Virus record (IMG/VR): IMGVR_UViG_3300033148_004933
Coordinates: 1 to 38,782 of that record
Direction: 5' to 3' (one strand)
Length of the DNA: 38,782 bases
From: a virus
Taxonomy: Duplodnaviria; Caudoviricetes
Within the stretch, counting starts at the first letter, position 1. Every line of letters begins with the position of its first letter. Below are positions 12,574 through 36,119 of this stretch, in pieces. The notes beneath the pieces are model-generated. The model saw nothing but the letters and a program-made list of their open reading frames with translations, searched no databases and was not told where the DNA came from. The position numbers and the translations under genes were made by a program.

Positions 12574-12614
12574 TCAAAGGCTAATGATATAATAATAGAA
12601 TAAATAAATTATGT

Positions 12615-13463
12615 ATGAAAAAAGAAATTAAAGAGATTGACGAGGGTAAAAAGGTAATGCGTATCACTACTCTAAATGAAAGGTGGTATGCAAAACCAAT
12701 TGAGGATAAAGAAACTGGTCTTCCTAAATATGAATTCCTGCCATCATCAACTTGGATAGCAGGGTATTATCCAAAAGGCATAGGATTCTGGAAATGGTTA
12801 GCGAATAAAGGATGGGACGAAGCAGAAGCATTAAAAATAGCAGCAGGAGATAAAGGATCAAAGGTTCATTATGCATGCGAGGATATTGATAAGGGAGTAG
12901 GAATAGAAATTACAAAGCAGAAATATCCTAATCCTACTAATGGAGAACTTGAGGAGTTGACGATTGAAGAAATAGATTGTATTAATAGTTTCAAACAATG
13001 GTTAGATGAAACTAAGCCAGAATTATTGGCTAATGAGATTACGGTATTTGGAGATGGATATGGTGGAACGATAGATAAGATTTATAGGATAGATGGACAG
13101 ATTTGGATCGTGGATCTAAAAACAAGTAAGACGGTGTGGGAGTCAGCTAAACTTCAATTATCTTCTTATTCAAATGCTGATATTGATTATAAGGAACTGA
13201 AGATTACAGAGAAAGAATGGAAAGAAAGGAAGCAGGCCATACTTCAGCTCGGATATGATAAGTATAGGACAGAAGGCAAGGCGAGATTCAAGTTTACCGA
13301 GATAGAGGATAAGTTTGAGTTATTTAAAATGGCTAAGAAGATTTGGGCAAATGAAAACCCAAATTCAAAGCCAAAAGAAATGGAATATCCTTTAATTATA
13401 AAGTCTGAATTTAGGACTTTAAAAGATAAGGATGTTAAGAAAAATGAAAATAAAAATAACTAA
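12615..13463 (+). CDS. PD-(D/E)XK exonuclease (phage recombination nuclease)
   Basis: GSKVH, YGGTID, IVDLKTSK, LQLSSY motifs. Confidence 0.85.
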   Translation: MKKEIKEIDEGKKVMRITTLNERWYAKPIEDKETGLPKYEFLPSSTWIAGYYPKGIGFWKWLANKGWDEAEALKIAAGDKGSKVHYACEDIDKGVGIEITKQKYPNPTNGELEELTIEEIDCINSFKQWLDETKPELLANEITVFGDGYGGTIDKIYRIDGQIWIVDLKTSKTVWESAKLQLSSYSNADIDYKELKITEKEWKERKQAILQLGYDKYRTEGKARFKFTEIEDKFELFKMAKKIWANENPNSKPKEMEYPLIIKSEFRTLKDKDVKKNENKNN

Positions 13464-20165: not shown

Positions 20166-20507
20166 ATGAAAAACATAATAAAAGCAATAAGAGAATATTT
20201 AATTTTAAGAAGAATGATAAGAGAGAAAGAAAGCGCCTTGTTTGAGACAGAAAGGGATATTGAATTCTTTGAAATATGCAAAGGAGAATATGTAAATATG
20301 ACGGTTCAAGGAGAGAATGATATGAGAAAGGAATTGCAGCAAGAATTAAATAAAGCTGAAAACAAAAAAGATAACGGTAAGATTAGAAGATTGTCAAATG
20401 ATATACAAGAGTATAAGAAAGTGCAGGGTCTTTATGCAATGTCAAAAAGAACAAGAGATGAATTAAAACTTTATCTTAATTTATTAAGACATGGAAATAA
20501 AGACTAG
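20166..20507 (+). CDS. Coiled-coil hypothetical protein
   Basis: ORF track. Confidence 0.65.
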   Translation: MKNIIKAIREYLILRRMIREKESALFETERDIEFFEICKGEYVNMTVQGENDMRKELQQELNKAENKKDNGKIRRLSNDIQEYKKVQGLYAMSKRTRDELKLYLNLLRHGNKD

Positions 20508-21102
20508 CTGGGATGATGGAAAGTTGTTGGATCTCAAATTAATAGATCTATTGGAAAAATATGAGATGCCTGCAACTTTCTATATTCCTAACGATTGTGA
20601 ATTGTCAAATCAAGAAATATATGAATTGTCTTTAAAGTTTGAAGTTGGAGGACATACTGTAAATCATCCACAAGATTTGAAAAAGCTTAGTGATCACGAA
20701 TTGTTTTTTGAAATTACAAGTAATAAGGATTATTTAGAGAAAATAATAGAAAAGAAAATATATAAATTCTGTTATCCAAGGGGAAGATATGACAAAAGAG
20801 TTATAAAAGCAGTCAAGGATGCAGATTATTTAGAAGCAAGAACAACAAAAGTGTTTAAACTTTTGAAACCTAAAAATCCTTATGAGACAGGAACTACAAT
20901 ACATGTATTTCAAAGGCCTGAATATCAAGGAGTTGATTGGTTGAAGTTAGCAAAGGAGTATTTCTTTTTAGCTAAGCAAGCAAATGATTCTATATATCAT
21001 TTGTGGGGTCATTCTTCAGAGGTAAATAAAAATAAAAACTGGGATAAATTAGAAGAATTATTTAAGTTTATAAAAAATTATGAAAAAAATAACGTGTCCT
21101 AA
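20491..21102 (+). CDS. Polysaccharide deacetylase (NodB/CE4)
   Basis: TSWDDG, ATFYI, GGHTVNHP, FCYPRG, HLWGH. Confidence 0.9.
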   Translation: MEIKTSWDDGKLLDLKLIDLLEKYEMPATFYIPNDCELSNQEIYELSLKFEVGGHTVNHPQDLKKLSDHELFFEITSNKDYLEKIIEKKIYKFCYPRGRYDKRVIKAVKDADYLEARTTKVFKLLKPKNPYETGTTIHVFQRPEYQGVDWLKLAKEYFFLAKQANDSIYHLWGHSSEVNKNKNWDKLEELFKFIKNYEKNNVS

Positions 21103-21268
21103 TTGTAATTTTGAGGGTAAGCCAAAGTATGGAAGAAGCGTTGGAATAGAATTATTATTATTTCTATTTACATGGTGGATGTTTTTAATTCCATTGTTTC
21201 TTTATTATGGATTTACAAAGAGATGGATTTGTCCTAAATGTAATTATAAATATATAATTAAGAAATGA
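21080..21268 (+). CDS. Small zinc-ribbon membrane protein (LITAF-like architecture)
   Basis: CPNC - hydrophobic segment - CPKC. Confidence 0.65.
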   Translation: MKKITCPNCNFEGKPKYGRSVGIELLLFLFTWWMFLIPLFLYYGFTKRWICPKCNYKYIIKK

Positions 21269-22122
21269 TTAAAGTATATCTTCCAAATATATCAAGATCA
21301 CAGATCGGGGGGGGCTGGACGTTTATTAGGAACTTAAAAGAAGGACTTAAAAGAGAAGTTGAGTTTGTTGATAATGTGGATGATTGTCATGTGTATTTTA
21401 TAGCAGGACCTACAATAGTTAATCCGTCAGAGGCTCATGAAGCTCATAAAAAAGGCAAGGCAATAGTTTTTAGAGTTGATAATGTTCCACGGAAATCAAG
21501 AAATAGAAGATCAACTCCATATGAAAGAATGAAAGAATTTACTGATCTTGCTACAGTTGTTATTTATCAATCTGAATGGGCGAAGAAATATTGTTATCCT
21601 TTATGCGGAGATGGAGAGATTATTTATAATGGAGTTGATACAAATATATTCTATCCTAATAAAGATTTGAGGCCTAAAGATAAAACTGTTTTCTTATATG
21701 CTTATCATGGCAAAAATGAATTGAAGCAATTTTGGAAAGCTCATTATATTTTTCAAATGCAACATAGAGAAAATCAAAATGCAGAGTTCTGGTTTATAAA
21801 TGACTTCGGAAGAAACTGGCAGGAAATTAATGATTCAAAATTTGATTTTTGGAATGGAGAAAGATATGTTGAATTAGAGAAAGTAGATAATCCTAATGAT
21901 ATGGCGAAGCTAATGCAACAGGCATCGTTTCTAATATATCCATCAATACTTGATGCATCGCCTAATTTGGTTTTGGAGGCAAGAGCTTCAGGATTGGATG
22001 TTATTGGCGCATCATCAAGAGAGTTTTCAGGAACAAAAGAATTGCTTGATCCTCAGCTTGACATATCATTAAAAAGAATGTGTGAGGAATATTTATCATT
22101 ATTTAGATTAATAGTTAATTAA
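21265..22122 (+). CDS. Glycosyltransferase, GT-B (GT4-like)
   Basis: IGGGWTF, YQSEW, IIYNGVD..FYP, PSILDASPNLVLEARASGL. Confidence 0.85.
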   Translation: MIKVYLPNISRSQIGGGWTFIRNLKEGLKREVEFVDNVDDCHVYFIAGPTIVNPSEAHEAHKKGKAIVFRVDNVPRKSRNRRSTPYERMKEFTDLATVVIYQSEWAKKYCYPLCGDGEIIYNGVDTNIFYPNKDLRPKDKTVFLYAYHGKNELKQFWKAHYIFQMQHRENQNAEFWFINDFGRNWQEINDSKFDFWNGERYVELEKVDNPNDMAKLMQQASFLIYPSILDASPNLVLEARASGLDVIGASSREFSGTKELLDPQLDISLKRMCEEYLSLFRLIVN

Positions 22123-22125
22123 AAT

Positions 22126-22599
22126 ATGAGAAATAAAAAAGGGCAATTTATTAAAGGACAAAGACCAGAATGGTTAAGAAAAAATATAAGTAAGTCATTA
22201 AAAGGAAAACCTAAATCAACAGCATTTAAGGAGAATCTTAGAAAGATTAGAACGGGTTGTAGGTTGAATAAAACAACGAGAGAAAAAATAGCGAAAAAGC
22301 TAAAAGGAAATAAGAATTCTGTTCGTGCCATAGATGGTAAAAATAAATATAAAGCAAGAGGATATGTTATGGTTTATAGTCCAAATCATCCGTCAGTTAA
22401 TAAATATCCTTATGTGTTTGAACACCGACTTATGATGGAAAAGAAGATTGGAAGACCTTTGGAACGATGGGAAATTGTTCATCATAAGAATGGAATAAAA
22501 GACGATAATAAAATTAGTAATTTAGAAATTTGTTTTCGTAAAAAGCACTTTGGGAAAGTTCAATGTCCTTTTTGTAGAAAAGAATTTTTAATAAAATGA
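22126..22599 (+). CDS. HNH homing endonuclease with NUMOD3-like N-terminus
   Basis: RNKKGQFIKG, KIAKKLKG, EHRLMMEKKIGR, VHHKNGIKDDNKISNL. Confidence 0.9.
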   Translation: MRNKKGQFIKGQRPEWLRKNISKSLKGKPKSTAFKENLRKIRTGCRLNKTTREKIAKKLKGNKNSVRAIDGKNKYKARGYVMVYSPNHPSVNKYPYVFEHRLMMEKKIGRPLERWEIVHHKNGIKDDNKISNLEICFRKKHFGKVQCPFCRKEFLIK

Positions 22600-22600
22600 T

Positions 22601-23194
22601 ATGTCATCATATACTCGTAATCAATTAGAAGATTGGCTTAAGACAATAGATGTCAAGGCAGATAGGGTTCTTGATATTGGAGGTAGTCAATTACCAATTA
22701 AGGGAAGGACTAAGAGTTGGGATGTTAAGGATTATAAGATACTTGATTTAAAAAATCCTCACGAGCAGAAAGTTAAACCTGATTGGGTTGGTAATATACA
22801 AGATGATTTGACAGATATTGATATTAGTGAGTCAATTGAAGTTCCTTATTTTAATGTAGTATTCTGCTTAGAAGTAAGTGAATATTGGTATAATCCACTT
22901 CAAGCATTGCAAAATATTAGTGAATTATTGATAAAGGGTGGTATTTTATATATCAGCTTTCATTTCTTATACCCAATGCACAATCCAAAAGGAAAAGATT
23001 ATTTAAGATATACAAAATGGGGAGTGGAAAAGTTGTTGAAAGAAATTGGATTTGAAATAGAAGATATAAAATATAGAACAGTTAAAGATAAAGGAAGATT
23101 ATTTGAATTTTATGCTGGAGAATGTATGAGGCCTTGTAAGAGTTATAATCAACATTCTGATATTGGTTATTTAATAAAAGCAATAAAAATATGA
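22601..23194 (+). CDS. Class I SAM-dependent methyltransferase
   Basis: VLDIGG, FNVVFCLEV, LIKGGILY, DYLRYT. Confidence 0.85.
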   Translation: MSSYTRNQLEDWLKTIDVKADRVLDIGGSQLPIKGRTKSWDVKDYKILDLKNPHEQKVKPDWVGNIQDDLTDIDISESIEVPYFNVVFCLEVSEYWYNPLQALQNISELLIKGGILYISFHFLYPMHNPKGKDYLRYTKWGVEKLLKEIGFEIEDIKYRTVKDKGRLFEFYAGECMRPCKSYNQHSDIGYLIKAIKI

Positions 23195-24006
23195 AGAAAT
23201 ATAAAATTGGCATAGTAGGAATCGGCATGGTTGGTGGTGCATTAATGAGATATTTTAAAAAGAAAGAAGCTTATGAAGTTAAGCTTTTTATTTTTGATAA
23301 AAAAGGTCTGGGATCAATGGAAGAAGTTGATAAGGCAGATTATATTTATATCTGTGTTCCTACTCCTTATGTTATGGAAAAGGGTTGCGATACTCTAATT
23401 ATTGAAGATGTAATATCTCAATTGAGTCCGGGTAAAATTATAATAATTAAATCAACATCTTCTCCCGGGACAACTGATTATTTTCAAAGAATTTATCCTA
23501 AACATAAATTTTTATTCAATCCAGAATTCTTAACAGAAGAAACAGCAGATCAAGATATGTGTTTTCCTGATAGACAGATTATAGGATATACTAAAGAAAG
23601 CTATAATGTTGCAAAAGATGTTTTACAACAATTACCATTAGCGCCTTTTGAGAGGATAGTTCCTGCGATAGTTGCAGAGATGATTAAATATGCAGGTAAT
23701 ACTTGGTTCTCTGTTAAGGTAGCAAAGAACAATGAATTGTATGATTTGTCAAGAAAGATAGGATTTACTGAGGAAGAATGGGAACAGGTTGTTGATGGAA
23801 TGTCAGCGGATAGAAGAATAGGAAGAACTCATTTAAAGATAATGCATAAAGGCAAAAGAGGATACTGGGGAAAGTGTCTGCCAAAGGATGCAAAGGCGTT
23901 ATTGGATTTTGCTAAAATTCATAAAGTTGATATGCCTGTTTTAAAAGCTACAGATGAATATAACGATAAATTATTAGATCGTCAAGGTTATAAAAAGTTT
24001 ATATGA
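23191..24006 (+). CDS. UDP-glucose/GDP-mannose 6-dehydrogenase family (lacks C-terminal domain)
   Basis: GIGMVG, CVPTP, IKST, NPEFL, AEMIKY, GYWGKCLPKD; only 271 aa. Confidence 0.9.
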   Translation: MKKYKIGIVGIGMVGGALMRYFKKKEAYEVKLFIFDKKGLGSMEEVDKADYIYICVPTPYVMEKGCDTLIIEDVISQLSPGKIIIIKSTSSPGTTDYFQRIYPKHKFLFNPEFLTEETADQDMCFPDRQIIGYTKESYNVAKDVLQQLPLAPFERIVPAIVAEMIKYAGNTWFSVKVAKNNELYDLSRKIGFTEEEWEQVVDGMSADRRIGRTHLKIMHKGKRGYWGKCLPKDAKALLDFAKIHKVDMPVLKATDEYNDKLLDRQGYKKFI

Positions 24007-24641
24007 ATTTAGAAAAAATAAACATCAAAGAGCATTTTTCAATGGAAGAATGGGATACAAGGGCAGTGGCAAGAGAAAAGCTTTATAAGAATATGGCTAA
24101 GATAATGCATGAAACTAAGAAGCCATTTATGCAGGATTGTGAGATTGAGGCTTTTGAAAAAGTTTTATTAGGTCTTAATGAAAAATATCTTGATATTCTT
24201 GAATGGGGATCTGGATATAGTACAGTATATTTTTCTGAATTTTTAGTAGATAATGATATTGATTATAAATGGGATTCATTAGAAATAGACGTTAGATGGT
24301 ATATTGAAATTGTGAAATTAGGATTAGAATATACTAAAATAGATATTCATTTATTTGATGAAGAGATATTAAGGATAGACGATAGAAGATGTCTGAGGAG
24401 ATTTCAAATGAATGAATATGTTAAGTTTCCAAGTCGTCTTGAAAAGAAGTTTGATCTTATCTTTATTGATGGATCTAAAAGAGTGAGATGTCTTAAAGAG
24501 GCAACTAAATTATTAAATCCTGATGGCGTTGTATTATTACATGACGCACAAAGGCCAGAGTATAAAGAAGGAATGGATTTATACGATGGTAAGATTTTAG
24601 CAGGAACTTTATGGCTGGGGAAGTTAAAAAAATCCCAATAA
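24003..24641 (+). CDS. Class I SAM-dependent methyltransferase
   Basis: ILEWGSGYST, FDLIFIDG..R, LNPDGVVLLHD. Confidence 0.85.
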   Translation: MNLEKINIKEHFSMEEWDTRAVAREKLYKNMAKIMHETKKPFMQDCEIEAFEKVLLGLNEKYLDILEWGSGYSTVYFSEFLVDNDIDYKWDSLEIDVRWYIEIVKLGLEYTKIDIHLFDEEILRIDDRRCLRRFQMNEYVKFPSRLEKKFDLIFIDGSKRVRCLKEATKLLNPDGVVLLHDAQRPEYKEGMDLYDGKILAGTLWLGKLKKSQ

Positions 24642-25234
24642 TAATGACTTGCAATTATGCAAGGCCTATATTGGTAGATCAGACATTAAAATCAGTAAGA
24701 GAAAATACTGAATATCCGTACAATCTTATATATACAGAAGATTATAAAAGAGGTCCTGATAAATTAGACTATCTAAATTTAAGAAATGAATTAGTTGACG
24801 GTATTAATTTTGAATGGGATTATATTATTTTTATGGATGATGATATATATTGCAGAAAAGGTTGGTTGAGTGCAATGGTCAAAGCTTTAGAGAATAACCC
24901 TGATGTTTATGTATTAGCAGGAACTACTTGGCCGGCTCATAGGATAGTTGAAGTCAGAGATGATATTTCTATAAGCAAGCAATTTGTAGGAGGATGTTTA
25001 ATAATGAGCAAATGGGTTTGGGGACAAATAAGACCGTGGCCTATTAATAAAAAGAAAACAATTATTATGTGGGAAAGAATATATGATCTTGGAGGAAAAA
25101 TAGCAGTATTAAATGATCAGACAAAATTAATACATTGTGGAGTAAAGAGTATTATAAATAGAAGAGGAAGAAGAAAAGATACAATAAAAAGAATAAGAGA
25201 TTTTGCACATAGTTTTGGAGCAAAAACAAATTAA
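24611..25234 (+). CDS. Glycosyltransferase, GT-A (GT2-like)
   Basis: IIMTCNY, TLKSV, YIIFMDDDI DXD motif, GWLSAM. Confidence 0.8.
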   Translation: MAGEVKKIPIIMTCNYARPILVDQTLKSVRENTEYPYNLIYTEDYKRGPDKLDYLNLRNELVDGINFEWDYIIFMDDDIYCRKGWLSAMVKALENNPDVYVLAGTTWPAHRIVEVRDDISISKQFVGGCLIMSKWVWGQIRPWPINKKKTIIMWERIYDLGGKIAVLNDQTKLIHCGVKSIINRRGRRKDTIKRIRDFAHSFGAKTN

Positions 25235-26127
25235 TGAAAATAGCATATGTAAGTAAACTATATTTATATTCAAATTTATTAATAGAGGGATTGATAAAAA
25301 AAGGCGTATATGTTAAATCGTTCAGATATTATAAGGACATAAAAAGACCACAGGATTATGATATAATTTATATTGAGTCATTGGGAGCTGATGTTACTGT
25401 TGCAAGTAAGAGAGAACATAAAAATCTTATAATATTAACAAGAGGAGTAGGAGTTTATGAGTCAAGGATTGATAGGATAATATGGAAAAATATAAAGACA
25501 TTATTTTTTTTACAACAACATCAGTTGGATTATTTTAAAAGGAGATGGGGTAATAAAAAGATTCCTACGAAGCTCGGAGTGTTGCCAGTTCCTGCGCCTT
25601 TAAAGCAATTTACATTGAAGAAAGATATAAGATTGACAAATAAAGTTGCTTTGATTGCAAATATAACAGATAGAAAAGGATCGGCATATATACCAGATTT
25701 TCTTCAGATGTATCCTGATTTAACGATTCATCATTTAGGACAGGTATGCCTATATGGAAATCCAGTTAGAGAATATGTTAGATGGAGATTAGAAAGAGAT
25801 GGAACTGCAAATAGATATTTTTGGAAGAAGCATATATCACAAGGAGATTTAAACAATTGGCTTGAAGATAAATCATATATTTGGCTACCTTCAATTAGTG
25901 AAGGATTTTGTAGAGCATTGATTGAGGGACATTGTAAGGGATTAAAACCTATTATAAAGAATTACGCAGGAGCAGAAACAATTTGGGACAACACATTTTT
26001 ATATGATAGAATAGATCAAATAAAGAGGATATTAGATTTACCTTATGAGCCGGAAAGATATAGGAAGTATGTAAATAATAAATTTAATAAAGAAAAAGTA
26101 GCAGAGATTTTTCTTTCTTATGTATGA
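25234..26127 (+). CDS. Glycosyltransferase, GT-B
   Basis: RKG, PSISEGFCRALIEGHCKGLKPI (E-x7-E). Confidence 0.75.
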   Translation: MKIAYVSKLYLYSNLLIEGLIKKGVYVKSFRYYKDIKRPQDYDIIYIESLGADVTVASKREHKNLIILTRGVGVYESRIDRIIWKNIKTLFFLQQHQLDYFKRRWGNKKIPTKLGVLPVPAPLKQFTLKKDIRLTNKVALIANITDRKGSAYIPDFLQMYPDLTIHHLGQVCLYGNPVREYVRWRLERDGTANRYFWKKHISQGDLNNWLEDKSYIWLPSISEGFCRALIEGHCKGLKPIIKNYAGAETIWDNTFLYDRIDQIKRILDLPYEPERYRKYVNNKFNKEKVAEIFLSYV

Positions 26128-27242
26128 TACATTATTTAAATATACAAATCCCAGATAGTTTTCAATTGCCAACAGAGCAATATCGTGGTAGAGGAAAACA
26201 TTGTTTTGTTGTTAGGGCAACAGACGAAGTTAGAGAAAAATTTGGATTATTGCATAAGAAACTTTTGTTAAAAGTTTTTCATCTTGACCCAATAGATGAA
26301 GGGACAGATATAAGTAAAATAAAATGGGGCGATGATCCTAAAGGAGATAACCCTAGATTGAATACAACAATAATGGAAGCTACAAAGATTCAGAATATTT
26401 GTCATTTTGAATATGTAGCGCCTAAAGTTCATGCTTTATTAACTGTAATATTTAGAGAGAAATTATATTTAGCACAACTTATTGATGATCTTGGAGCAGA
26501 TTTTAAAGAACATCATACCGATTCATACGCTGTTTATGAGAGAATTAAGGAGCTTGGCGCAAAATACGGATTTACTAATCAAAAAGATGATGTTTCAAAG
26601 TGGGATGTCTTGCAGGATAAGCTTATAGATTTTCAAACATTCTGGTTTACAGAAGAACATAAAAAGAAAATTGTACAGATTTATAAAGATAAAACTAAAT
26701 GGGGCAAGATATATTATCATGAGTGTCCGGCATTAGAGTTAACTGGTGGGCCTAGAAATATGGCTAAGAGAGTAATAGAAATGGGATTAGATAAGGTTGA
26801 TTTTAAAGATAAGACAGTTTTGGATATAGGGTGCAGTGGAGGTATATTTATTAATTATGCGTTGGACAGAGGGGCTAAGAGGGCTGTTGGTCTTGATTTT
26901 AAAGAGTGTGTTCAGGGTGCTAGATTAGCTTCAAATGAATCAGAACATTTTAATGCTGAATATTATGGTATTGATCTTCTGAAAACGAATACAAAATATT
27001 TGCAGGGATTAATGAATATTGACAAGTTTGATATAGTGTTGTATTTTTCAATGTTTAGGCATGTTCATTTTCCAGACTTTGTCTGGGAGCTTTGTGGAGA
27101 TATGGCTATTATTGAATGGAATAATTGGAAAAGCGAAGAAGAAATAAAAGGATTAGTTGGTAAGCAATTTAATATTAATAAAGAAGGCAGAACAACAGAT
27201 CATGGCACAGGTAAACCGTTCTGGTTCTGTAAACCAAAATGA
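26124..27242 (+). CDS. Kinase-like domain fused to a SAM-dependent methyltransferase
   Basis: N-half GRGKHCFV, LLKVF, EATKIQN, DDVSKWDV, KLIDF; C-half KTVLDIGCSGG, FDIVLYFSM. Confidence 0.7.
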   Translation: MIHYLNIQIPDSFQLPTEQYRGRGKHCFVVRATDEVREKFGLLHKKLLLKVFHLDPIDEGTDISKIKWGDDPKGDNPRLNTTIMEATKIQNICHFEYVAPKVHALLTVIFREKLYLAQLIDDLGADFKEHHTDSYAVYERIKELGAKYGFTNQKDDVSKWDVLQDKLIDFQTFWFTEEHKKKIVQIYKDKTKWGKIYYHECPALELTGGPRNMAKRVIEMGLDKVDFKDKTVLDIGCSGGIFINYALDRGAKRAVGLDFKECVQGARLASNESEHFNAEYYGIDLLKTNTKYLQGLMNIDKFDIVLYFSMFRHVHFPDFVWELCGDMAIIEWNNWKSEEEIKGLVGKQFNINKEGRTTDHGTGKPFWFCKPK

Positions 27243-27826
27243 GATATAACAAATACGAAAAACAGGGTGCATGCCATTGGAAAGAATATGCAAGGGGAAG
27301 AAATTATAAGGAGATAGTTGACTCAAGTTTGATTCCTTTTCTAAAGAGAGATTTAAAAAAAGGAACTGTTGTTGATATTGGATGTGGAGATGGGTTGCCT
27401 ACATGTAAGCTTGCCGGTCTGGGGTTTATAACAATAGGTGTTGATGTTTCAGAGCTGGGAATAAAATATGCTAGACATCATTGTAATAAAGAAGTTGAAT
27501 GGGTACCAGAAGATGTGATTGATTTCTTAGGAGATTGTATTGTTGACAATAGAACATTTGATTATTTATATTCCTTGAATACTATTGAGCATTTAGAAGA
27601 TGCAAAAGTATTAGTTGAACTTTGCAAGAGAATAAAAAACTTTTCTATAATAGTTACTGATGATAAAGATACTTGTAAAAAGGATAATCCATTCCACGTT
27701 AAAGAATTAAATAGAGACGACTTTAAGGAATTATTTTATGAGTTTAATTTAGAAGAAATACAAATTAATCATCCAAAGTTTTTTGGATATAAAATAAAAT
27801 ATGAAAAATGTACTTCAAATAATTGA
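27239..27826 (+). CDS. Class I SAM-dependent methyltransferase
   Basis: VVDIGCGDG, GVDVS, TIEHL, FHVKE. Confidence 0.85.
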   Translation: MRYNKYEKQGACHWKEYARGRNYKEIVDSSLIPFLKRDLKKGTVVDIGCGDGLPTCKLAGLGFITIGVDVSELGIKYARHHCNKEVEWVPEDVIDFLGDCIVDNRTFDYLYSLNTIEHLEDAKVLVELCKRIKNFSIIVTDDKDTCKKDNPFHVKELNRDDFKELFYEFNLEEIQINHPKFFGYKIKYEKCTSNN

Positions 27827-29381
27827 TACGCCCAATTGGGCAATTAATAAATTAGCAAGCGCTATCGTTAAATATAATCCTAAATATAATTTTGAAACTA
27901 TCTTTGTCCATCCAAAGGATTTGGAACAAGGACATGTTGATTTGGCAGATATAAAGGAATCAATAGAAAGAGCCGATATTATAGATGCTCAATATTGGAG
28001 GACTTGTTCTCAGTTGCTTGAAAAAATACCAGAGATGAAAGAAAAGAAAATTATATTGACTCATCATAATGAGAAGAATCTGTTATCTGCAGACTGGACT
28101 GATATAGATTTGCATATAGCAAAGACAAAATATTCCTTTGATATATTAAACGCAAAATATGAAGGAAAGGTGAGGCTTATTTATAATAGTTTTGATCATG
28201 AGACATTTAAATTTAACGATGATTATCCGCCTTCTGATAAAAGAGTTGGTTATGTGGGAAGGACATCACCTTGGAAAGGATTAAAAGAAATAGCGCAAGC
28301 TTGTGCTGAGTTGGGATATGAATTGCTATTTATGGGTAAAATGGATAAACCTAGTTATTTTAATTCAATCCCTCAAGAGCATAGAGATATTATAGATTGG
28401 AATTATTTAGATTGTCCTGATGAAGAAAGGCCTAATGCATATAAAGATATGACAATTTATGTAGGTAATTCGGGTCCGGGCAGAGAGGTTGGAACATTGG
28501 GAGTGATTGAGGCTATGGCTTGTGGTATTCCAGTAGTTACTACACGAGCAGGAATAATGAATGATATAGGAAAGCATGAAAAGAATTGTTTGATTGCGGA
28601 CTTTAATGATTACGAATCATTGAAAGAAAATATATCAAGATTGATGCAATCAGCTTCATTGAGAAGTAAGTTAAGAAAAAATGCTTGGAATACAATTAAG
28701 AATTATAATAATGAAAGAATGGCAAAGGAATATTCAAGGGCTTTTAATGAGATTTTATTTAATAAGAAGCCACTTGTTTCAGTTATAATTCCGGCTACAA
28801 AAGAAAGAGAAGAATGTGTTAGTAAAATATTATTAATATTAGAGGAAAGCACTTATAAAAATATAGAGGCTATTGTAATTTGGGATGAGTTGGATGATGT
28901 AGAGATTGGTGTATTAGGAACAGATAAGTTGTCTTATCCGATTAATCAATTGAATACAAATAAGCTAGGTTATAATTTGGCTATGGCAAGGAATTTAGGA
29001 ATTATAGAAGCTGAAGGAGAATATTTAATGTTTTGTGATAGTAGATTATTGCCTGATAAGGATAGTATAACTAATTTTATTATGCCAATGGCAGCAAAAA
29101 CTTGGCTTTTTGGAAATAAGAATAATGATAAAAAAACATTTATTGAGAACTTTTCATTTATATCTAAAGAAAATATTGTTAGCGCTGGAATGTTTAATGA
29201 AAGAATAAATGAATATGGCGGTATGTCACAGGAGTTAAGAGAAAGATTTGGTGATCAGGGATTTGAATTTAAATTTATAGAAGAAGCAAAATGCAGTGAA
29301 TTAAAGACAAGTAAAACAAGGTCTGATCGCCGTCAACAAATTATAAGAATGAAAAACTTATTATGGAAGCTTCGTAATTGA
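27801..29381 (+). CDS. Bifunctional glycosyltransferase (GT4-like + GT2-like)
   Basis: GYVGR..WKG, EVGTLGVIEAMACGIPVV; then PLVSVIIP, ARNLGI, LMFCDS, YGGM. Confidence 0.9.
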   Translation: MKNVLQIIDTPNWAINKLASAIVKYNPKYNFETIFVHPKDLEQGHVDLADIKESIERADIIDAQYWRTCSQLLEKIPEMKEKKIILTHHNEKNLLSADWTDIDLHIAKTKYSFDILNAKYEGKVRLIYNSFDHETFKFNDDYPPSDKRVGYVGRTSPWKGLKEIAQACAELGYELLFMGKMDKPSYFNSIPQEHRDIIDWNYLDCPDEERPNAYKDMTIYVGNSGPGREVGTLGVIEAMACGIPVVTTRAGIMNDIGKHEKNCLIADFNDYESLKENISRLMQSASLRSKLRKNAWNTIKNYNNERMAKEYSRAFNEILFNKKPLVSVIIPATKEREECVSKILLILEESTYKNIEAIVIWDELDDVEIGVLGTDKLSYPINQLNTNKLGYNLAMARNLGIIEAEGEYLMFCDSRLLPDKDSITNFIMPMAAKTWLFGNKNNDKKTFIENFSFISKENIVSAGMFNERINEYGGMSQELRERFGDQGFEFKFIEEAKCSELKTSKTRSDRRQQIIRMKNLLWKLRN

Positions 29382-29406
29382 TAAGCACATCAATATGAGG
29401 TATAAT
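29378..29406 (+). promoter_or_regulatory. Sigma70-type promoter of the HNH gene
   Basis: TTGATA (29378) -N17- TATAAT (29401); ATG 7 nt downstream at 29414. Confidence 0.65.
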
Positions 29407-29413
29407 GGAAGTA

Positions 29414-29917
29414 ATGGAAAGAATAAAAAGAATAAAAACTTGTATTGGTTGTGGTGATAATTTTCAATTTTATGCTTTTAATATAGAGTATAAAAGGAGA
29501 AAGTATTGCACACGAATATGTGCTAATAAACAAACTGCAAATGCAAATAGTATTTCAAAAATGGGTGAGAAAAATCCAATGTATGGAAAGCATCCTTGGA
29601 ATTATAAAAAATATGGCGTTCAGAAAGGAAGGCGTGGAAAAGATAATCATTTCTGGAAAGGTGGGAAAACTGATACCACGCATAGAGCAAGACAGAGCGG
29701 TGTTTGGAAAAAATGGAGATTGGCTGTTTATGAAAGAGATAATTATACTTGTCAAATATGCAAAGTTAAAGGTGATGAACTTATACCACATCATATTAAA
29801 TTGTATCGTTTTTATCCAAGAGATAGATATAAAGTCGGCAATGGAGTTACTTTATGCAGGAAACATCATAGAGGACTTCATAATAAAAATGTTGGTAAAA
29901 AAATTATAAAAATATGA
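29414..29917 (+). CDS. HNH homing endonuclease (likely start 29414)
   Basis: KYCTRIC, GEKNPMYGK, NHFWKGG, WRLAVYERDNYTCQIC, HHIK, NGVTLCRKHH. Confidence 0.9.
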   Translation: MERIKRIKTCIGCGDNFQFYAFNIEYKRRKYCTRICANKQTANANSISKMGEKNPMYGKHPWNYKKYGVQKGRRGKDNHFWKGGKTDTTHRARQSGVWKKWRLAVYERDNYTCQICKVKGDELIPHHIKLYRFYPRDRYKVGNGVTLCRKHHRGLHNKNVGKKIIKI

Positions 29918-30940
29918 TTAATAAACAAAAAAACGCCACGGGATCCGAAGGCACACACGAAGAAAGAAAGATTCGTTGCTTAGGGTATCCGTGGCACTGA
30001 TCTCTTAGGACATCAGTATGAGTTATCAAAATTACCATTCGTTGAATGGTCTTGGTTAATGCAATATAAGAGGAAGTATTCTAAAAGGATAAGAAATGAT
30101 TTTATGACAAACTGGGTTCATTATTATGAAGAGGGTAAATATGATCTGGCTATTTTACATTTGGATCAGCAATGTGTTGATGAGGAATTACAAAGAAGAG
30201 GCAAGGCATCTTTGTATATGCAGATTAACGAAGTTATAAAAGATATTCCTAAAATTGTAATTCAGCATGGTACGCCTTATTATCCTGAGAAGTTTACTAA
30301 AGAATTTATGATACAGGAAATAAAGAAATTGATAGGAGATAATGTGATGGTTGTTAATTCAAGGACGGCTGTGAAACAATGGGGATTTGGTATTCCTATA
30401 ATACATGGATTAGATCCTGAAGAATGGTTTGATTTAACAAAAGAACCTAGAGTTGTCACTGTTATAAGCCCGGCCGGGCTTGATAAATATTATGATAGGA
30501 CATTTTTAAGGGCAGTTAGAGAAAGATTAGAAGAGCAGAGTATTGGGATGTGTCATATAACGGTAGATTTTAGGGCTTCTAATTGGGATGAGTATAGGAA
30601 GCTATTAGGATCTAGTTTAATATATTTTAATCCTACGAGAGAATCACCAATGCCTAGATCAAGAACAGAGGCGATGTTATCTGGCTGTTGTGTTATAACA
30701 ACACCACATCAAGATGCAGATACTTTTATTGAGCATGGGGTCAATGGACTTATTTGTAAAAGGAATCCAGATCATGTTATTAAGCTTATAAATTGGTGTA
30801 TGGATAATTATAAGGAAGCAATAAAAATCGGGCAGAAAGGAAAAGAGACAGCTAAAAAAGTATTTTCAATTGAAAGATATCAAGATGATTGGAAAAAATT
30901 AATGTTTAAAACCGTTGAAGATTATGGTAAGAAGAGTTAA
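29914..30940 (+). CDS. GT-B glycosyltransferase interrupted near its 5' end (recoded or pseudogene)
   Basis: 28-codon ORF 29914-30000 ends ..RCLGYPWH*; +1 frame from 30005 reads LGHQYELSKLP... into the 293-aa ORF with ESPMPRSRTEAMLSGC and FIEHGVNG. Confidence 0.75.
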
Positions 30941-31088
30941 ATCATTAAGAAGAAAAATAGGATATTCTCATAGAGAGCATAGATCAAAGAAAGGAAGAAA
31001 AAGAATAAAAAGCTTTGCTGATTATAAAAGAAATAAAGATTATAAATTAAGAAAGCAAAAATTAAAACTAAAGGATAAATTAATATAA
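30924..31088 (+). CDS. Very basic small protein (54 aa)
   Basis: MVRRVKSLRRKIGYSHREHRSKKGRKRIKSFADYKRNKDYKLRKQKLKLKDKLI; fills the gap exactly; not in the ORF track. Confidence 0.55.
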   Translation: MVRRVKSLRRKIGYSHREHRSKKGRKRIKSFADYKRNKDYKLRKQKLKLKDKLI

Positions 31089-31090
31089 TT

Positions 31091-31966
31091 ATGAAGAAAC
31101 AAAAGACTGCCTTTCTTAGCTTTGAACAATATCATGGCAAAAAGAATATAGGATCATCAAAGATTCGTTGTCATTGGCTTATAGAAAACTGGCTTAAAGA
31201 AGGCAAGGATATTGGCAATGTAGAGGTTTTTAAGATCGGGAAGAAATATGATTGTATTATATTTCAGAAAGCATATTGGATTGAATATGCAAAGGTGTTT
31301 AAAGGAATAAAGATTTTAGATTTATGTGACCCTGATTGGTTGAGCTGGCCTTATGAGATGATATCTATGATTAATGAAGTTGATGGAATAACAACATCAA
31401 CAGAAGCGCTTGCTGATTCAATAGCTAAGTTTACAGATAAGCCTGTATGGCACTTGCCTGATAGGGTTAATCTTGATTTAATAAAACCGATAAAGAAACA
31501 TAAAGGCAATGCTAAAACTGTTGTTTGGTATGGATATCCTCAAAACTTTGAGATGCTTCAATCGGCTATTAATGCTATAAAGAAAGAGAAGCTTAATCTT
31601 ATTGTTATATCAAGCAAGCCGTTCTCAATGGCTGGTTGGCCTGAAGATATTGAATTGACTAATTTCTTTTATAATGAGGAGCATGTATATCAGGATATAG
31701 CAAAGGCGGATATAGTGATAAATCCAATATCAGATTTGGCTCATTGGAAATATAAATCTAATAATAAGACTGTTATAGCTTGGGCTTTGGGAATGCCTGT
31801 TGCGGTTAATGATCAAGAGTTAAAGAAATTTATCCCGGAGGAAGCAAGGATACAAGAGGTTAGTAAAAGATTAAAGGAGGTTAAAGAGAAATATGATGTT
31901 AAGTTATCAGTAAAAGAATTAAAAAACATAATCATATATTTGTCAAACAAGAAAAAGCAAATATAA
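31091..31966 (+). CDS. Glycosyltransferase-like protein (GT-B)
   Basis: GSSKIR, IIFQK, ILDLCD, VWYGY, YKSNNK..AWALGMPV. Confidence 0.7.
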   Translation: MKKQKTAFLSFEQYHGKKNIGSSKIRCHWLIENWLKEGKDIGNVEVFKIGKKYDCIIFQKAYWIEYAKVFKGIKILDLCDPDWLSWPYEMISMINEVDGITTSTEALADSIAKFTDKPVWHLPDRVNLDLIKPIKKHKGNAKTVVWYGYPQNFEMLQSAINAIKKEKLNLIVISSKPFSMAGWPEDIELTNFFYNEEHVYQDIAKADIVINPISDLAHWKYKSNNKTVIAWALGMPVAVNDQELKKFIPEEARIQEVSKRLKEVKEKYDVKLSVKELKNIIIYLSNKKKQI

Positions 31967-32399: not shown

Positions 32400-33822
32400 A
32401 AAAATATTAAAGATATTCTATGCATTTCAGAAAACAAATCACGGAATAACTTATTATCCATTTCAAAAGGAAATAATTGAAAGAGTATTGAGGACAGTAT
32501 TGTTTAGGACAGGCGAAGATATCTATTTTGAAATAAGCCGTCAAGCCGGCAAGACAGAGGCTTTAGTTGGAGTGGTAGAATTCTTAATGATCTTTTATCC
32601 TAGCTTGATGGGTGATATAATAAGAATAGGAATATTTGCGCCACAGAAAGAACAGACCAAAACGGATTTTGATAGATTAAAAGATAAGTTAGAGAGAGGC
32701 AAGCTACAAGGATTTAAAAGTATAGTAGATCCTAATGAATCAAATGCAGTAACTTTACAATTAGCAAATGGATCATATTGTTATACGTTTCCATTGACAA
32801 TAACATCAAAGGTAGAATCAAAAACATTGGATTTGATTATTTATGAAGAGGCGAATAGTATTGATGATATTCAGAAAAAAAAGAAGTCCGATCCTATGGG
32901 AACTAATACAAATGCGCCTAGAATAGCAGTTGGAGTGTCTGGGACAGCTATAAACTTTTTCTATAAGGCAATTCAAAGAGGAAAGAATGCTTATAGTTAT
33001 CCACACCCTATAATTGAAAAACAGAAAAGAGAAGCGTATAATAAAGATGGAGACGAATCACATCTTTATTATGAGAAATTTATAAAAAGCCAGATAGATT
33101 TGTACGGCGAAGATGATGATGCTTTTAGAACTCAGTATAAATTAGAATGGATTATAGGGATTGGGCAGTTTTTAACTAGAGATGATTTAGATAAAATAAA
33201 AGGAGATTTTGAAGTATATAATACGGATCATGAGGTTGTTGTTGGAATTGATACGGCCAAAAGTCCGGATAAAACTATTGTAACTGTAAAGGATATAGAA
33301 GATAAAAGAATATGCGGATGGCTTGAGATTGCAGGAGAAAACTACGAAGATCAATATTATATAATAGAAAAATGGCTTGCTAAAAGATATCCAAATGTTG
33401 TAAGAGTAGCAATTGATTCAACAGGTCAGGGAGATTTTATGCCTGATATGTTTGAAAACCATTCTGATTATGAGATATTGCCTGTAAAGTTTTCTTTACA
33501 AAGTAAAGATGTAATGTATAAGAATCTTTTAATTCAAGTTAGAAATCAAGGAACTAAATATCCTAAGACAGATTGTAAAGAAAGAGAACATTTTGAAATG
33601 CAATTACTGGATTTGCAGAAAGAATATAAAGGAGAGTATTTGTCTTGTCATCATCCTGATGATCCTAAAACACATGATGATTATCCTGATTCATGGGCAT
33701 TGGCAGAATTAGCACATAAAGATTTAATTGAAAATGGAGTTGATATAAATATTATCAATACTAAGGATAAAAAAAATTATGTTATAAATAAAGGTGAAGA
33801 ACCCATCATGGGTATAGTATAA
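32380..33822 (+). CDS. terL: Terminase large subunit
   Basis: Walker A SRQAGKT, Walker B IIYEEA, nuclease GIDTAK, AIDSTG, HDDYPDS. Confidence 0.92.
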   Translation: MTEEKFKKILKIFYAFQKTNHGITYYPFQKEIIERVLRTVLFRTGEDIYFEISRQAGKTEALVGVVEFLMIFYPSLMGDIIRIGIFAPQKEQTKTDFDRLKDKLERGKLQGFKSIVDPNESNAVTLQLANGSYCYTFPLTITSKVESKTLDLIIYEEANSIDDIQKKKKSDPMGTNTNAPRIAVGVSGTAINFFYKAIQRGKNAYSYPHPIIEKQKREAYNKDGDESHLYYEKFIKSQIDLYGEDDDAFRTQYKLEWIIGIGQFLTRDDLDKIKGDFEVYNTDHEVVVGIDTAKSPDKTIVTVKDIEDKRICGWLEIAGENYEDQYYIIEKWLAKRYPNVVRVAIDSTGQGDFMPDMFENHSDYEILPVKFSLQSKDVMYKNLLIQVRNQGTKYPKTDCKEREHFEMQLLDLQKEYKGEYLSCHHPDDPKTHDDYPDSWALAELAHKDLIENGVDINIINTKDKKNYVINKGEEPIMGIV

Positions 33823-36119
33823 TGGATATCATAAAAGAATTAGTTAAAAAAGTAGATATTGACATAGAAGAGAAACAAATAAGTCCTGATGATTTATTTG
33901 CGCCCTCTTCTTTTTTATTGACTGGAGAGGTTCCTCCTGATAGAAAAACGAGCGAATTGTTGAGATCATCAACAGGATGGGTTTATGCTTGCGTTAATGC
34001 TATTGCAGATGAGATAGGATTTATAAATATAAGGTTATTTAGATTTAATAAGAATGGTTCTGAAGAGATATTTAATAATCCTATTTTGGATTTATTGCAT
34101 AGAGCAAATGATTTTACAACAAAGTTTGATTTGTTCTGGTTGACCACGAATTATTTAGAATTGACAGGTGAAGCTCCTTGGTTTTTAGTCTATGAAGGCA
34201 ACAAGCCTTCTCAGATAGTTCTTTTAAGACCAGATAGATTAAAGGTAATTCCCGGTGAAAATGTTAATGAAATTATAAAAGGATATAAATATAATATTGG
34301 AAATGGACAGGAGATAGATTTAGAATTTAATGAAGTTATATTTTTAAGATATCCTGATCCTGCAAAACCATTTAGAGGAATTGGAACACTTAGCGCAGCA
34401 GCTTTAACGTTTGATATTGACAAATTTTCTGAAGAGTGGAATAAAAAGTTTTATTGGAATTCGGGTAGGCCTGATTCTGTATTAACTACTGAACAGAAAT
34501 TAACAAAGACGCAGATAGAAACATTGGAAGATAGATTGAGGAAATTTAAATCTATAACGAATGCTCATAAGATGATGATACTTCAGAAAGGATTGAAATA
34601 TGAGCCTATGGCTATATCTCAGAAAGATATGGACTTTATGAAACAGCAGGAGTTTAGCAGAGATAAAATATTAGGAATATTTAGAGTTCCTAAATCAGTG
34701 CTTGGATTAGTTGCTGATTCTAATAGATCAAACACAGAGGCATCAGATGTTATATTTGCTAAAAGAACAATACGTCCTAAGATGCAAAGAATTATAGAAC
34801 AGCTTAACGAATTCTTATTGCCATTATTTTCGGGAACAGAGAATATGTTTTTGTCATATGATGATCCTATTCCTGAAAATTCTGAAGCTGCAACCAAATC
34901 AAAAGAGAGTGCGCTAAAGACAGGATACGCTACAATTAATGAAATAAGAGAAAGATCAGACTTAGAATCAATTGGACCTGAAGGAGATAAGATTAGGATT
35001 CCTAATAATCTTGTTTCAATTGAAGAATCATCAAATCCTGCAGAAAAGAAATTAAGTAGAAATGATAAAGTATTTATTAGACAAATGAAAGCTAGAAATA
35101 GAAAGAAAGAACAAAAAAATCAGATTGTTAAAAAAGTAAAAGAGGTTATAACTAAACAGATTGAGGAAAATATAATAAAAATAATGAAGACTCAAGTTGG
35201 AATATTTAATGGTAAGAAAAAAAAGAAAATAAAGAAAAAAGAAGAAGATAATATTTCTTCTGAAGAAAAAAAGAAATTAGATTTTCAATCAAAACAATTA
35301 CAAATAGCTGATAAGTTTGAGGAGGCATTTTTAAGAAGAGTGAGATCTGTATTCAGAGATCAGAGAGATGCTATTTTAAGGGAACTATCAAGCAAGGCAG
35401 TTGATCCTAAGGGATTTAAATTAGATCCTGATAAGTGGGGCAAAAAGTTTTCTAATGAAACGAAAGCAGTAGTATTGGGTATAATAAAAGAAGAAAGCGA
35501 TGAAGCATTTAACTTTTTAGAAATTGAAGATCAATTAGATTTGAGCAGTCCTTCAGTTAAGAATTATACTGAGGTAACAACATTTAGATATGGCCGAGAA
35601 GTTACTAAGACTACTAATAAACAAGTGGAGAGAGTTATAGCTCTTGGTGTAAACAAAGGAGAAAGCATACCACAGATTACCGAAAGAGTCAAAGGATTAT
35701 TTAGTCAAATATCTACTGGAAGAGCAGTAAGGATAACTCGTTCAGAGGTGATAAGAGCTGCTAACTTTGCCACAGAGCAATCATATATTCAATCTGGTGT
35801 TGTATCTCATAAAGAATGGTTAACAGCTTTAGATGATAGGGTATGTCAATTTTGTATGCCTATGAATGGAAGAGTCGTCGGATTAAAACAACCATATCAT
35901 AAATATAATGACAACTTTGAGGGAAATCAGGGAGGAGTATTAAGATTTAATTATACAGAGATTCAATATCCGCCATTACATCCACAATGTAGATGTACTA
36001 TTATTCCTATTGTTGTAAAATCTTTTGTATCATCAAAGATTAAGAAGCTTGAAAAAGAAAAAAAAGAATTAGTTGATGAAAAAAATAAAATTGATAACCT
36101 TGTAAATGGACAAGAATAA
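33822..36119 (+). CDS. HK97-type portal protein fused to a MuF/SPP1 gp7-like head morphogenesis domain
   Basis: WVYACVNAIA, LRPDR, DMDF, IFRVP, TINEIR; C-terminal RAVRITRSE, KEWLTALDDRVC, PPLHPQCRC. Confidence 0.92.
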   Translation: MDIIKELVKKVDIDIEEKQISPDDLFAPSSFLLTGEVPPDRKTSELLRSSTGWVYACVNAIADEIGFINIRLFRFNKNGSEEIFNNPILDLLHRANDFTTKFDLFWLTTNYLELTGEAPWFLVYEGNKPSQIVLLRPDRLKVIPGENVNEIIKGYKYNIGNGQEIDLEFNEVIFLRYPDPAKPFRGIGTLSAAALTFDIDKFSEEWNKKFYWNSGRPDSVLTTEQKLTKTQIETLEDRLRKFKSITNAHKMMILQKGLKYEPMAISQKDMDFMKQQEFSRDKILGIFRVPKSVLGLVADSNRSNTEASDVIFAKRTIRPKMQRIIEQLNEFLLPLFSGTENMFLSYDDPIPENSEAATKSKESALKTGYATINEIRERSDLESIGPEGDKIRIPNNLVSIEESSNPAEKKLSRNDKVFIRQMKARNRKKEQKNQIVKKVKEVITKQIEENIIKIMKTQVGIFNGKKKKKIKKKEEDNISSEEKKKLDFQSKQLQIADKFEEAFLRRVRSVFRDQRDAILRELSSKAVDPKGFKLDPDKWGKKFSNETKAVVLGIIKEESDEAFNFLEIEDQLDLSSPSVKNYTEVTTFRYGREVTKTTNKQVERVIALGVNKGESIPQITERVKGLFSQISTGRAVRITRSEVIRAANFATEQSYIQSGVVSHKEWLTALDDRVCQFCMPMNGRVVGLKQPYHKYNDNFEGNQGGVLRFNYTEIQYPPLHPQCRCTIIPIVVKSFVSSKIKKLEKEKKELVDEKNKIDNLVNGQE

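Follow-up and report, generated by a model that had tools for sequence, protein, structure and literature searches.

In the 38,782-nt sequence of an uncultured phage (the window), a glycosyltransferase gene is broken by a short, stop-led gap, and judging from sequence comparison this gene is likely a minimal counterpart of the T4 gene 60 bypass, spread by a selfish DNA-cutting gene. The break recurs across a gene family, is accompanied by a hairpin held in a set position, separates two frames that are both under selection, is associated with HNH genes and has been exchanged through cassette swaps. The comparative evidence makes it quite probable that ribosomes cross the gap by programmed translational bypassing, with a refolding hairpin as the driving force and a homing cassette as the carrier.

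All features of the locus lie on the plus strand. Homology with an intact sister locus, L003, stops at the 3' end of an upstream GT4-GT2 gene (27801..29381), which in this alignment is the left edge of the cassette. A free-standing endonuclease gene of the HNH type (29405..29917), encoding a zinc-finger/NUMOD3-like N-terminus and an HNH domain, is likely the mobiliser of the cassette, and its stop overlaps the ATG of ORF1 (ATGA, 29914). ORF1 (29914..30000) runs for 28 codons to a TGA and encodes an N-terminal extension and the first strand of the glycosyltransferase (KIRCLGYPWH), with the motif kept as in intact genes. It ends in CAC TGA (29995-30000), and its final sense codon, CAC (29995..29997), is the putative take-off codon; the His at this site is invariant in 69/69 intact proteins. 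The 7-nt coding gap TGATCTC (29998..30004) opens with the stop and closes with a presumed landing triplet, CTC (30002-30004), after which ORF2 (30005..30940), the body of a GT-B (GT4) glycosyltransferase, resumes at TTA 30005. On re-checking, the sequence statements of the preliminary description (the HNH stop/ATG overlap, CAC TGA, TTA 30005 and the stems) all hold, and on refolding of the window its three hairpins form as described: a 5' hairpin (29935..29995), a stem containing the stop (29996..30017) and a 3' stem (30034..30050). The 5' stem reaches -28.1 kcal/mol (z -4.7, with 0/200 shuffles equally good), while the stop-containing stem is weak (z -2.1).

None of the sequencing runs listed contains reads of the window genome itself. 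The site is bridged by two contigs, less than 90% identical, from a different sediment sample, and the gap is present in both. One carries a 7-nt gap with T30003A, which gives a CAC landing, a single base that is possibly an error because this contig is 149 nt long at depth 3; the other carries a 6-nt gap at depth 6.3. As far as these contigs reach, the 7 nt, for which a read check was proposed earlier, show no sign of an assembly error. No tRNA gene was found in the 38,782 nt, so that no phage-encoded suppressor is seen. A search for a second device elsewhere in the window turned up a single candidate, a weak one at 12590 (-18.1 kcal/mol) that is followed by a Met after seven codons and is attributed to chance.

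The interruption is a family pattern rather than a one-off. A survey of this GT4 glycosyltransferase family of phages covered 180 loci, of which 49 (42 distinct) have an interruption within the motif P-W-H-x-x-H-Q, raw counts that overstate independence because many of the 42 are relatives; the earlier concern that the insert might be unique to this genome does not apply, as relatives carry the gap. Excluded before counting were 21 loci without the junction, three unresolved loci (L186, L194 and L197), eight distant cellular homologues and exact duplicates. The gaps measure 5-11 nt, with one exception of 25 nt (L071) that holds a GCAA-loop hairpin, and by length modulo 3 they fall into all three frames (15, 14 and 12 of 41), so that the alternative of a +1 frameshift, offered in the preliminary description, fails for the family. 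Breaks follow six different motif positions (P, W, H, L/I/T, A or Q), and every gap restores the fixed motif spacing, the W-H-x-x-H-Q spacing being constant in 85 intact genes. An in-frame stop opens the gap in 41/42, with TGA, TAA and TAG all represented; the lone other start is CGG (L060), a rare codon that accounts for one of 70 Arg codons of that locus. A slow A-site codon directly behind take-off, a general feature of programmed bypassing, is present throughout. Stop reassignment was ruled out, since all three stops lead gaps and 26/41 gaps are out of frame. A further case, L220, obtained through a separate pattern search, fits the same rule, and the distinct natural variants total 43, including the window gene. 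The gene is matched by none of 50,697 records of cultured phages.

Across the family, only the 5' stem of the three hairpins exceeds chance. A strong 5' hairpin (z <= -2) is present in 41/41 broken vs 0/82 intact genes, three intact genes without usable upstream sequence having been left out. In the window its 3' arm terminates on base 1 of the take-off codon; in 35/41 genes the stem end lies at most one base from the first base of that codon, and it shifts along with the codon (Spearman 0.80). Positions -6 to -2 are paired in 42/42, and the hairpin covaries, the synonymous base at -4 being any of the four bases and meeting its Watson-Crick partner in 19/19. The stop-containing stem is genuine in the window genome and unconserved across the family, and a stem starting at the take-off codon (the T4-type A-site stem, z <= -2) occurs in 5/42 broken vs 6/85 intact genes (p 0.89). 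The 3' stem arises incidentally from the codons for P-F-V-E-W, is also seen in weaker form in intact L003 and is not part of the bypass device; a 3' barrier to forward slippage was found in 0/41 broken vs 6/82 intact genes. A mini Shine-Dalgarno about 6 nt ahead of the landing occurs in 0/42 broken genes. Of the 36 ORF1s whose ATG could be placed, one has K-x-Y-K, sought as a KKYK-type peptide signal; a peptide signal of another kind may still act. The shortest ORF1 mentioned has 13 codons (L095).

In 24/42 genes the landing triplet, which closes the gap, and the take-off codon specify the same amino acid; compared with other offsets, same-residue landings number 23/41 vs 9/328, and matches at two or more positions 37/41 vs 50/328. 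Identity by codon position is 31, 38 and 19 of 42, lowest at the wobble base, and flanking bases match in only 7-13 of 42. Counted against bypassing are the 18/42 landings that encode a different residue and the 4/41 that match at a single position. In the window, CTC mismatches the take-off codon CAC at its middle base; CAC itself stands at this place in a close relative. The family evidence backs the bypassing first proposed, with CAC as the take-off codon; of the two landings then suggested, the most likely is CTC 30002, because of the CAC in the relative and the fixed motif spacing of the intact genes, rather than CAT 30011.

Under the bypass model, the ribosome would melt the 5' hairpin while translating ORF1 and stall when CAC occupies the P site and UGA the A site. 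The top of the hairpin would refold behind the stalled ribosome, and zipping of its last base pairs would draw the 3' arm from the mRNA exit channel; peptidyl-tRNA-His would then release its codon, and the ribosome would be pushed forward until some 6 nt (4-8) separated its P site from the stem end behind it. There the tRNA would re-pair loosely (in the window, CTC for CAC) and translation would resume at TTA, yielding P-W-H-L-G-H-Q. The purpose may be that the gap and recoded codons spoil the nuclease target in a conserved motif while the protein stays unchanged, the same shielding of a nuclease target by a gap as in T4 mobA/gene 60. Ribosomal protein bL9 has an anti-slippage role; the idea of hosts lacking it was dropped, bL9 being present in 4/5 genomes with family loci (bins that are perhaps not the true hosts). 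In gene 60, the 5' stem is described as acting as a motor (PMC5009743), and upstream hairpins are reported to promote forward shifts on 70S ribosomes, but the hairpin-dependent forward shift described in that source was seen only without RF2, which counts against bypassing here (PMC6321510).

To judge from gene distribution, the gap likely arrived and spread with the adjacent HNH homing endonuclease. The window HNH protein is a weak match in Pfam (HNH_2, E 0.026, under the cut-off) but can be aligned with neighbours from the same cassette that Pfam does recognise, H129-H130 and N146 being unchanged in 11/11; its gene is missing from intact L003 (79% identical). HNH genes lie upstream of 17/33 broken vs 4/76 intact genes (loci with <500 nt upstream being left out), and in 17 independent pairs HNH and gap go in the same direction in 9.9 and in the opposite one in 0.1 (median p 0.002). 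Against this, an HNH gene is missing within 1 kb of 16/33 broken genes and present at four intact ones, so that the HNH link drawn in the preliminary description stands as a strong association but is partial. Broken and intact labels switch at least 22 times on the tree, and L052 and L140 have identical flanks with different hairpin-gap modules. A nuclease gene beside an altered site, absent in intact sisters and patchy on the tree, fits the pattern of a free-standing homing cassette.

The target protein is a GT-B/GT4 glycosyltransferase: ORF2 matches Pfam PF00534 (Glycos_transf_1, E 7.9e-10), and the model of intact L003 (pLDDT 96) has the GT-B fold and resembles HepE, MshA and BshA, with strand 1 corresponding to the part supplied by ORF1. 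The downstream frame is under purifying selection. Median dN/dS of ORF2 is 0.078 in broken genes (9/10 pairs estimable) and 0.106 in intact ones (5/10 pairs estimable), with 0.15 for the window ORF2 vs intact L003; the relaxed selection envisaged earlier as a possible objection is not seen. ORF2 is full-length in 40/42, the remaining two having 206 and 220 aa.

A single-base frameshift or stop readthrough would have to be +1 in the window (adding two residues), -1/+2 for gaps of 5, 8 and 11 nt and readthrough for 6 and 9 nt, and is highly improbable. In the window, the ORF2 frame stays open over the 7 codons that precede the resume codon, and +1 shifts are described as stimulated by upstream hairpins (PMC6321510), but three mechanisms would be required for one hairpin architecture, extra residues would enter a motif whose spacing is fixed in all 85 intact genes, and the codon repeat that closes the gap would be left unexplained. 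Such shifts are impossible in L144 (10-nt gap), where a stop in the ORF2 frame immediately precedes the resume codon, so that the gap is passable only by a hop or by removal at the RNA level. The latter, whether by unknown micro-splicing or by an RNA polymerase jump upon hairpin formation, would be independent of frame, as the data are, and a hairpin near the junction might act on a polymerase or nuclease. It is nonetheless highly improbable: the gaps share no sequence and no downstream structure, the 3-nt repeat keeps to the codon register and matches least at its 3' base, the opposite of what primer realignment requires, the stop leading 41/42 gaps is a translation signal, and Rfam over 29200-30300 gave no match of note, only a chance-level one (HgcG, 13.4 bits vs a cut-off of 77).

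It is just as improbable that ORF1 terminates normally and ORF2 re-initiates, with products acting alone or assembling. Split phage enzymes with assembling halves are described beside homing endonucleases (10.1101/2022.08.31.505936), and the window has a Met at 30059, the start that the preliminary description had feared homologues might use; yet an ATG within 25 codons occurs in 10/42, scattered and without a shared start codon, and in 1/42 at the position of Met 30059, where initiation would lose strand 1, helix 1 and strand 2. CAY and TAC are among the resume codons, and the matched landing codons would be unaccounted for. The notion that these are dead genes bearing insertion scars or target-site duplications from a mobile element, or assembly errors, draws on the short repeat at the gap end and on the absence of reads of the window genome from the listed runs, but is hardly credible, given purifying selection with full-length ORF2 in nearly all cases, a covarying hairpin and independent assemblies that share the break, with compensated indels in ORF1.

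Beyond hairpin-driven bypassing in this family, there is perhaps an even chance that one refolding hairpin suffices as a portable bypass device, working as a ruler, and that homing endonucleases have fitted it repeatedly into unrelated conserved phage genes (this glycosyltransferase and, in L037, a GDP-mannose dehydratase). Bypassing would then be common in phages and would join introns and inteins as a third route to self-protection. The hairpin would move a stop-stalled ribosome a set 4-8 nt beyond the stem end, and little codon match would therefore be needed for landing. A scan of 874 kb of flanks recovered 36/48 known sites and gave 16 other matches (14 distinct), of which one stood up, in gmd (GDP-mannose dehydratase) of L037; among 16 gmd loci the break is in the L037 contig only. 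The pattern search returned eight matches (four contigs already in the set, L220 as the one new true case and three unrelated), and 18 loci of other HNH relatives yielded weak candidates only. The 43 natural variants of a ~70-nt device differ in gap length, frame, take-off, stop and landing match while keeping one hairpin, and form a ready series for asking if the refolding of mRNA is by itself enough to move ribosomes forward, a model argued in bioRxiv 10.1101/2024.12.09.627546. Gene callers cut short or miss such interrupted genes, and homing endonucleases may spread without introns or inteins via silent recoding.

Only a handful of natural cases of programmed bypassing are known, in the gene 60 family, in Magnusiomyces mitochondria and in the Hau3 terminase. 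In the main texts of open-licence PMC and bioRxiv papers, neither this glycosyltransferase family nor a class of hairpin-led micro-gaps is reported, though the 2022 preprint may have further cases in its tables. A 2016 review states that short-distance counterparts of bypassing were long presumed, no natural example of an in-frame stop hop being known at the time (PMC5009743). The synthetic E. coli 'stop hops' that it describes share matched codons around a stop, 9 nt giving one residue as in the 6-nt gaps here (PMC5009743), L033 being an exact codon match (CAC TAA CAC); the present cases differ in being natural and hairpin-linked. In cluster O mycobacteriophages, an HNH gene likewise adjoins a tape-measure gene without a normal start, bypassing being one option and no splicing having been found, but the mechanism is left open and, as described, no gap or hairpin is defined (PMC4351075). 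The Magnusiomyces byps are also numerous, mobile, hopped inserts that tolerate imperfect take-off/landing matches, but are mitochondrial, 27-55 nt long and use an unused sense codon and a hairpin within the insert (PMC5009743), which only L071 resembles. The terminase of Streptomyces phage Hau3 shares a short gap in a conserved motif, a slow A-site codon and a proposed stimulatory 5' stem-loop; its gaps are 10-nt and 7-nt UUA gaps, and the 10-nt hop was demonstrated by MS in E. coli once UUA was changed to a stop (PMC10732093). It differs in its rare UUA trigger, proposed as a host-state sensor, its internal SD, its occurrence in 3/100 genes and, as described, the lack of an endonuclease link (PMC10732093).

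The closest comparison is T4 gene 60/mobA, whose cassette the 2022 preprint calls unique (Manning and Atkins, 10.1101/2022.08.31.505936). Its target is the topoisomerase II large subunit (Gly46 or Asp45) instead of a glycosyltransferase, gaps in its family span 20-50 nt (50 nt in T4) compared with 5-11 nt, and its 5' stem ends 9 nt upstream of the take-off codon, whereas the glycosyltransferase hairpin ends on it. Unlike T4, the family takes off from six motif positions and at least seven amino acids, and 18/42 of its landings are non-synonymous. Shared, as described in that preprint, are an HNH gene overlapping a new N-terminal extension, a recoded target-gene start, a take-off codon followed by a stop or rare Arg codon, a presumed landing codon, a 5' stem, insertions that recurred independently, gaps that outlast their nuclease and nuclease-domain exchange. 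The miniature gene 60-like bypass first envisaged keeps its HNH cassette, 5' stem, stop and presumed landing, while the T4 take-off stem, mini-SD (0/42), KKYK signal and 3' barrier are unconserved or absent, so that the glycosyltransferase device would resemble gene 60 in its working without being a member of that family.

The window is a complete virus record of 38.8 kb whose genes include, by Pfam, those for portal, capsid, tail and tape-measure proteins, the portal protein being fused to a Mu gpF-like domain (33822-36119). A large glycosylation cluster with several glycosyltransferases (GTs), methyltransferases, a UDP-sugar dehydrogenase and a polysaccharide deacetylase (20491-31966) precedes and adjoins the presumed terminase genes; virion and DNA glycosylation are both possible. 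Re-reading of the sequence bore out the preliminary description of the interrupted GT. On the plus strand, an HNH-type ORF (29405-29917) overlaps ORF1 (29914-30000), the N-terminal part of the GT, whose 28 codons end in CAC TGA, and the GT4 body (ORF2) picks up beyond a 7-nt gap with TTA 30005, which is +1 relative to the ORF1 frame. A 5' stem (29935-29995) folds with -28.1 kcal/mol (z -4.7). This genome itself is in none of the listed sequencing runs, but two contigs of relatives (<90% identical, from another sediment sample) span the gap site. One, a short contig at depth 3, has a gap of the same length that ends in CAC where the window has CTC, and carries C29939A and G29991T, stem partners of each other. 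In the second, the gap measures 6 nt and ORF1 carries indels that keep the frame, one of them opposite the bulged A29987. A weak hairpin-stop candidate at 12590, ahead of the ORF at 12615, was judged to reflect chance rather than a second device.

The GT family comprises 180 loci (179 from four scans, plus the window), of which 49 are broken by a gap in the motif P-W-H-x-x-H-Q, 107 are intact, 21 lack the junction and 3 were unresolved. Once duplicates and eight distant cellular genes are set aside, 85 of the intact loci are distinct, and 42 of the broken loci are distinct; a 43rd broken case, L220, came from a pattern search run separately. The gap is not peculiar to the window genome. Among the first 41 distinct cases, the gap measures 5 nt (3), 6 (9), 7 (13), 8 (8), 9 (6), 10 (1) or 11 (1), and the residue before it is Pro in 1 case, Trp in 11, His in 19, the one after that His in 8 and Gln in 2. 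The 42nd, L071 (L071:2941-3002), has a 25-nt gap after Ala; along with the usual 5' hairpin it contains a GCAA-loop hairpin, CCCCC-GCAA-GGGGG, within the gap, with Ala at both take-off and landing, and seems to stand midway between the short gaps and inserts of the T4 or byp type. The first gap codon is TGA, TAA or TAG in 41 of 42 genes. The sole exception is CGG, a rare codon that accounts for just one of the 70 Arg codons tallied there (L060:2990-3003).

A 69-nt stretch that ends at the take-off codon, the last sense codon of ORF1, folds with z <= -2 in 41/41 broken genes (median -5.9) vs 0/82 intact genes (median +0.4). Its 5' arm usually lies within an N-terminal extension of ORF1, which mostly has 23-31 codons; intact genes reach that His in about 12. 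In 35/41 the end of the stem falls no more than one base from the first base of the take-off codon. It shifts along with the take-off site from Pro to Gln (Spearman 0.80), and lies 4-8 nt from landing in 40/41. In single-sequence folds, pairing covers positions -6 to -2 in 42/42. In the His class, base -4 is synonymous and can be any of the four bases, with its correct partner in 19/19. Only one of the three hairpins proposed in the preliminary description therefore matters: stems beginning at take-off (5/42 broken, 6/85 intact) and downstream stems (0/41 vs 6/82) are not enriched. A mini-SD is absent from all 42 broken genes, and K-x-Y-K in ORF1 (1/36) is not enriched. In L165 (1670-1712) ORF1 begins within the 5' arm, so this stem could also gate initiation.

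The landing triplet was defined sequence-blind as the 3 nt ahead of the codon with which the motif starts again. In 23/41 cases (24/42 with L071) it specifies the same residue as the take-off codon, compared with 9/328 triplets at other offsets, a rate reached by none of 10,000 permutations. Take-off and landing agree at codon positions 1, 2 and 3 in 31, 38 and 19 of 42 genes, flanking bases match at background (7-13/42), and the third base differs in 13 of the 24 same-residue pairs. This pattern marks a codon-level repeat rather than DNA duplication or primer realignment. A strict codon-match rule is disfavoured, as 18/42 landings are non-synonymous and 4/41 match at a single position; the CAC to CTC of the window is one of these loose matches.

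Broken genes are dispersed over a quick protein tree, with 29 changes, at least 22 of them forced by well-supported branches. A block of HNH gene, new ORF1, hairpin and gap distinguishes close broken and intact sisters (window/L003, L147/L101, L113/L118 and L060/L055), and L052 and L140 have identical flanks on both sides but different modules, with take-off at Trp in one and His in the other. At the N terminus, the HNH genes have a zinc-finger and NUMOD3-like part in common, but their nuclease domains are of two kinds. HNH-like sequence occurs within 1 kb upstream of 17/33 broken vs 4/76 intact genes (including L179, added from Pfam), and in 17 independent pairs the link runs in the same direction in 9.9 and the opposite in 0.1. 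The association of HNH with the gap is strong but incomplete: 16 of the 33 broken genes lack HNH within that distance and four intact genes have it. By analogy with mobA, reportedly described by Bonocora in 2011, the gap probably protects the gene from HNH cleavage. Upstream of L093, an HNH homologue lies within 1 kb on the strand opposite to the broken GT. The intact member L175 (= L035, L105) occurs on long contigs of 78 and 212 kb, one labelled Candidatus Magasanikbacteria, and on a 32-kb viral record; it is possibly a prophage, and hints that some of the family have a CPR host.

Programmed translational bypassing is the predicted and likely route to the full GT. The stop would stall the ribosome at the end of ORF1, the hairpin zipping up behind it would drive forward movement, and the ribosome would re-pair loosely at the landing triplet before resuming translation. 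This forward push is modelled on the "motor" role of the 5' stem of gene 60 (PMC5009743) and on the forward shifts that upstream hairpins cause on 70S ribosomes, there only with RF2 absent (PMC6321510).

That the broken genes are dead is hardly conceivable. Relaxed selection had been named as evidence against bypassing, and the median ORF2 dN/dS is 0.078 among broken genes (9/10 pairs estimable), 0.102 between broken genes and intact sisters (6/6; window vs L003, 0.15) and 0.106 among intact genes (5/10). Re-initiation at ORF2 is highly improbable: an ATG occurs in its first 25 codons in 10/42 genes, at scattered positions. The K-I-R-I-F-x-x-P pattern of intact genes is kept in ORF1. In the predicted GT-B structure of intact L003 (pLDDT 96; matching HepE, MshA and BshA), strand 1 consists of residues from ORF1, and helix 1 and strand 2 would be lost as well if translation began at Met 30059. 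These genes are therefore alive and in need of ORF1. Deleting the gap in silico restores the motif spacing of intact genes in every case. Removal of the gap at the RNA level is considered just as improbable as re-initiation. Gaps of 5-11 nt represent all three frames, and a mixture of frameshifting and readthrough across them is very unlikely.

The putative bypassing device recurs in a GDP-mannose 4,6-dehydratase gene (gmd; L037:4628-4713, the contig of L202), where CAA TGA CAA lies within the nucleotide-binding motif G-I-T-G-Q-D-G, with an extended ORF1 and a hairpin of z -6.0; no HNH gene lies directly upstream. The GT of this contig is also broken, and the gmd further on has an in-frame intein-like insertion (L202:2062-3081). 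Other phage gmd genes (L209, L210, L212, L213) are split by long insertions at differing sites, which suggests a homing hot spot.

A literature search of open-licence PMC and bioRxiv texts found no published account of this GT family or of a hairpin-led micro-gap class. The window system would work in the manner of T4 gene 60, and its cassette is laid out as Manning and Atkins (10.1101/2022.08.31.505936) describe; the CGG of L060 resembles the AGG that replaces the stop in some gene 60 homologues. However, the GT family differs in the defining features of the gene 60 family, namely target gene, take-off stem, mini-SD, peptide signal and 3' barrier. Nearest in size among known systems are the Hau3 gaps (PMC10732093).
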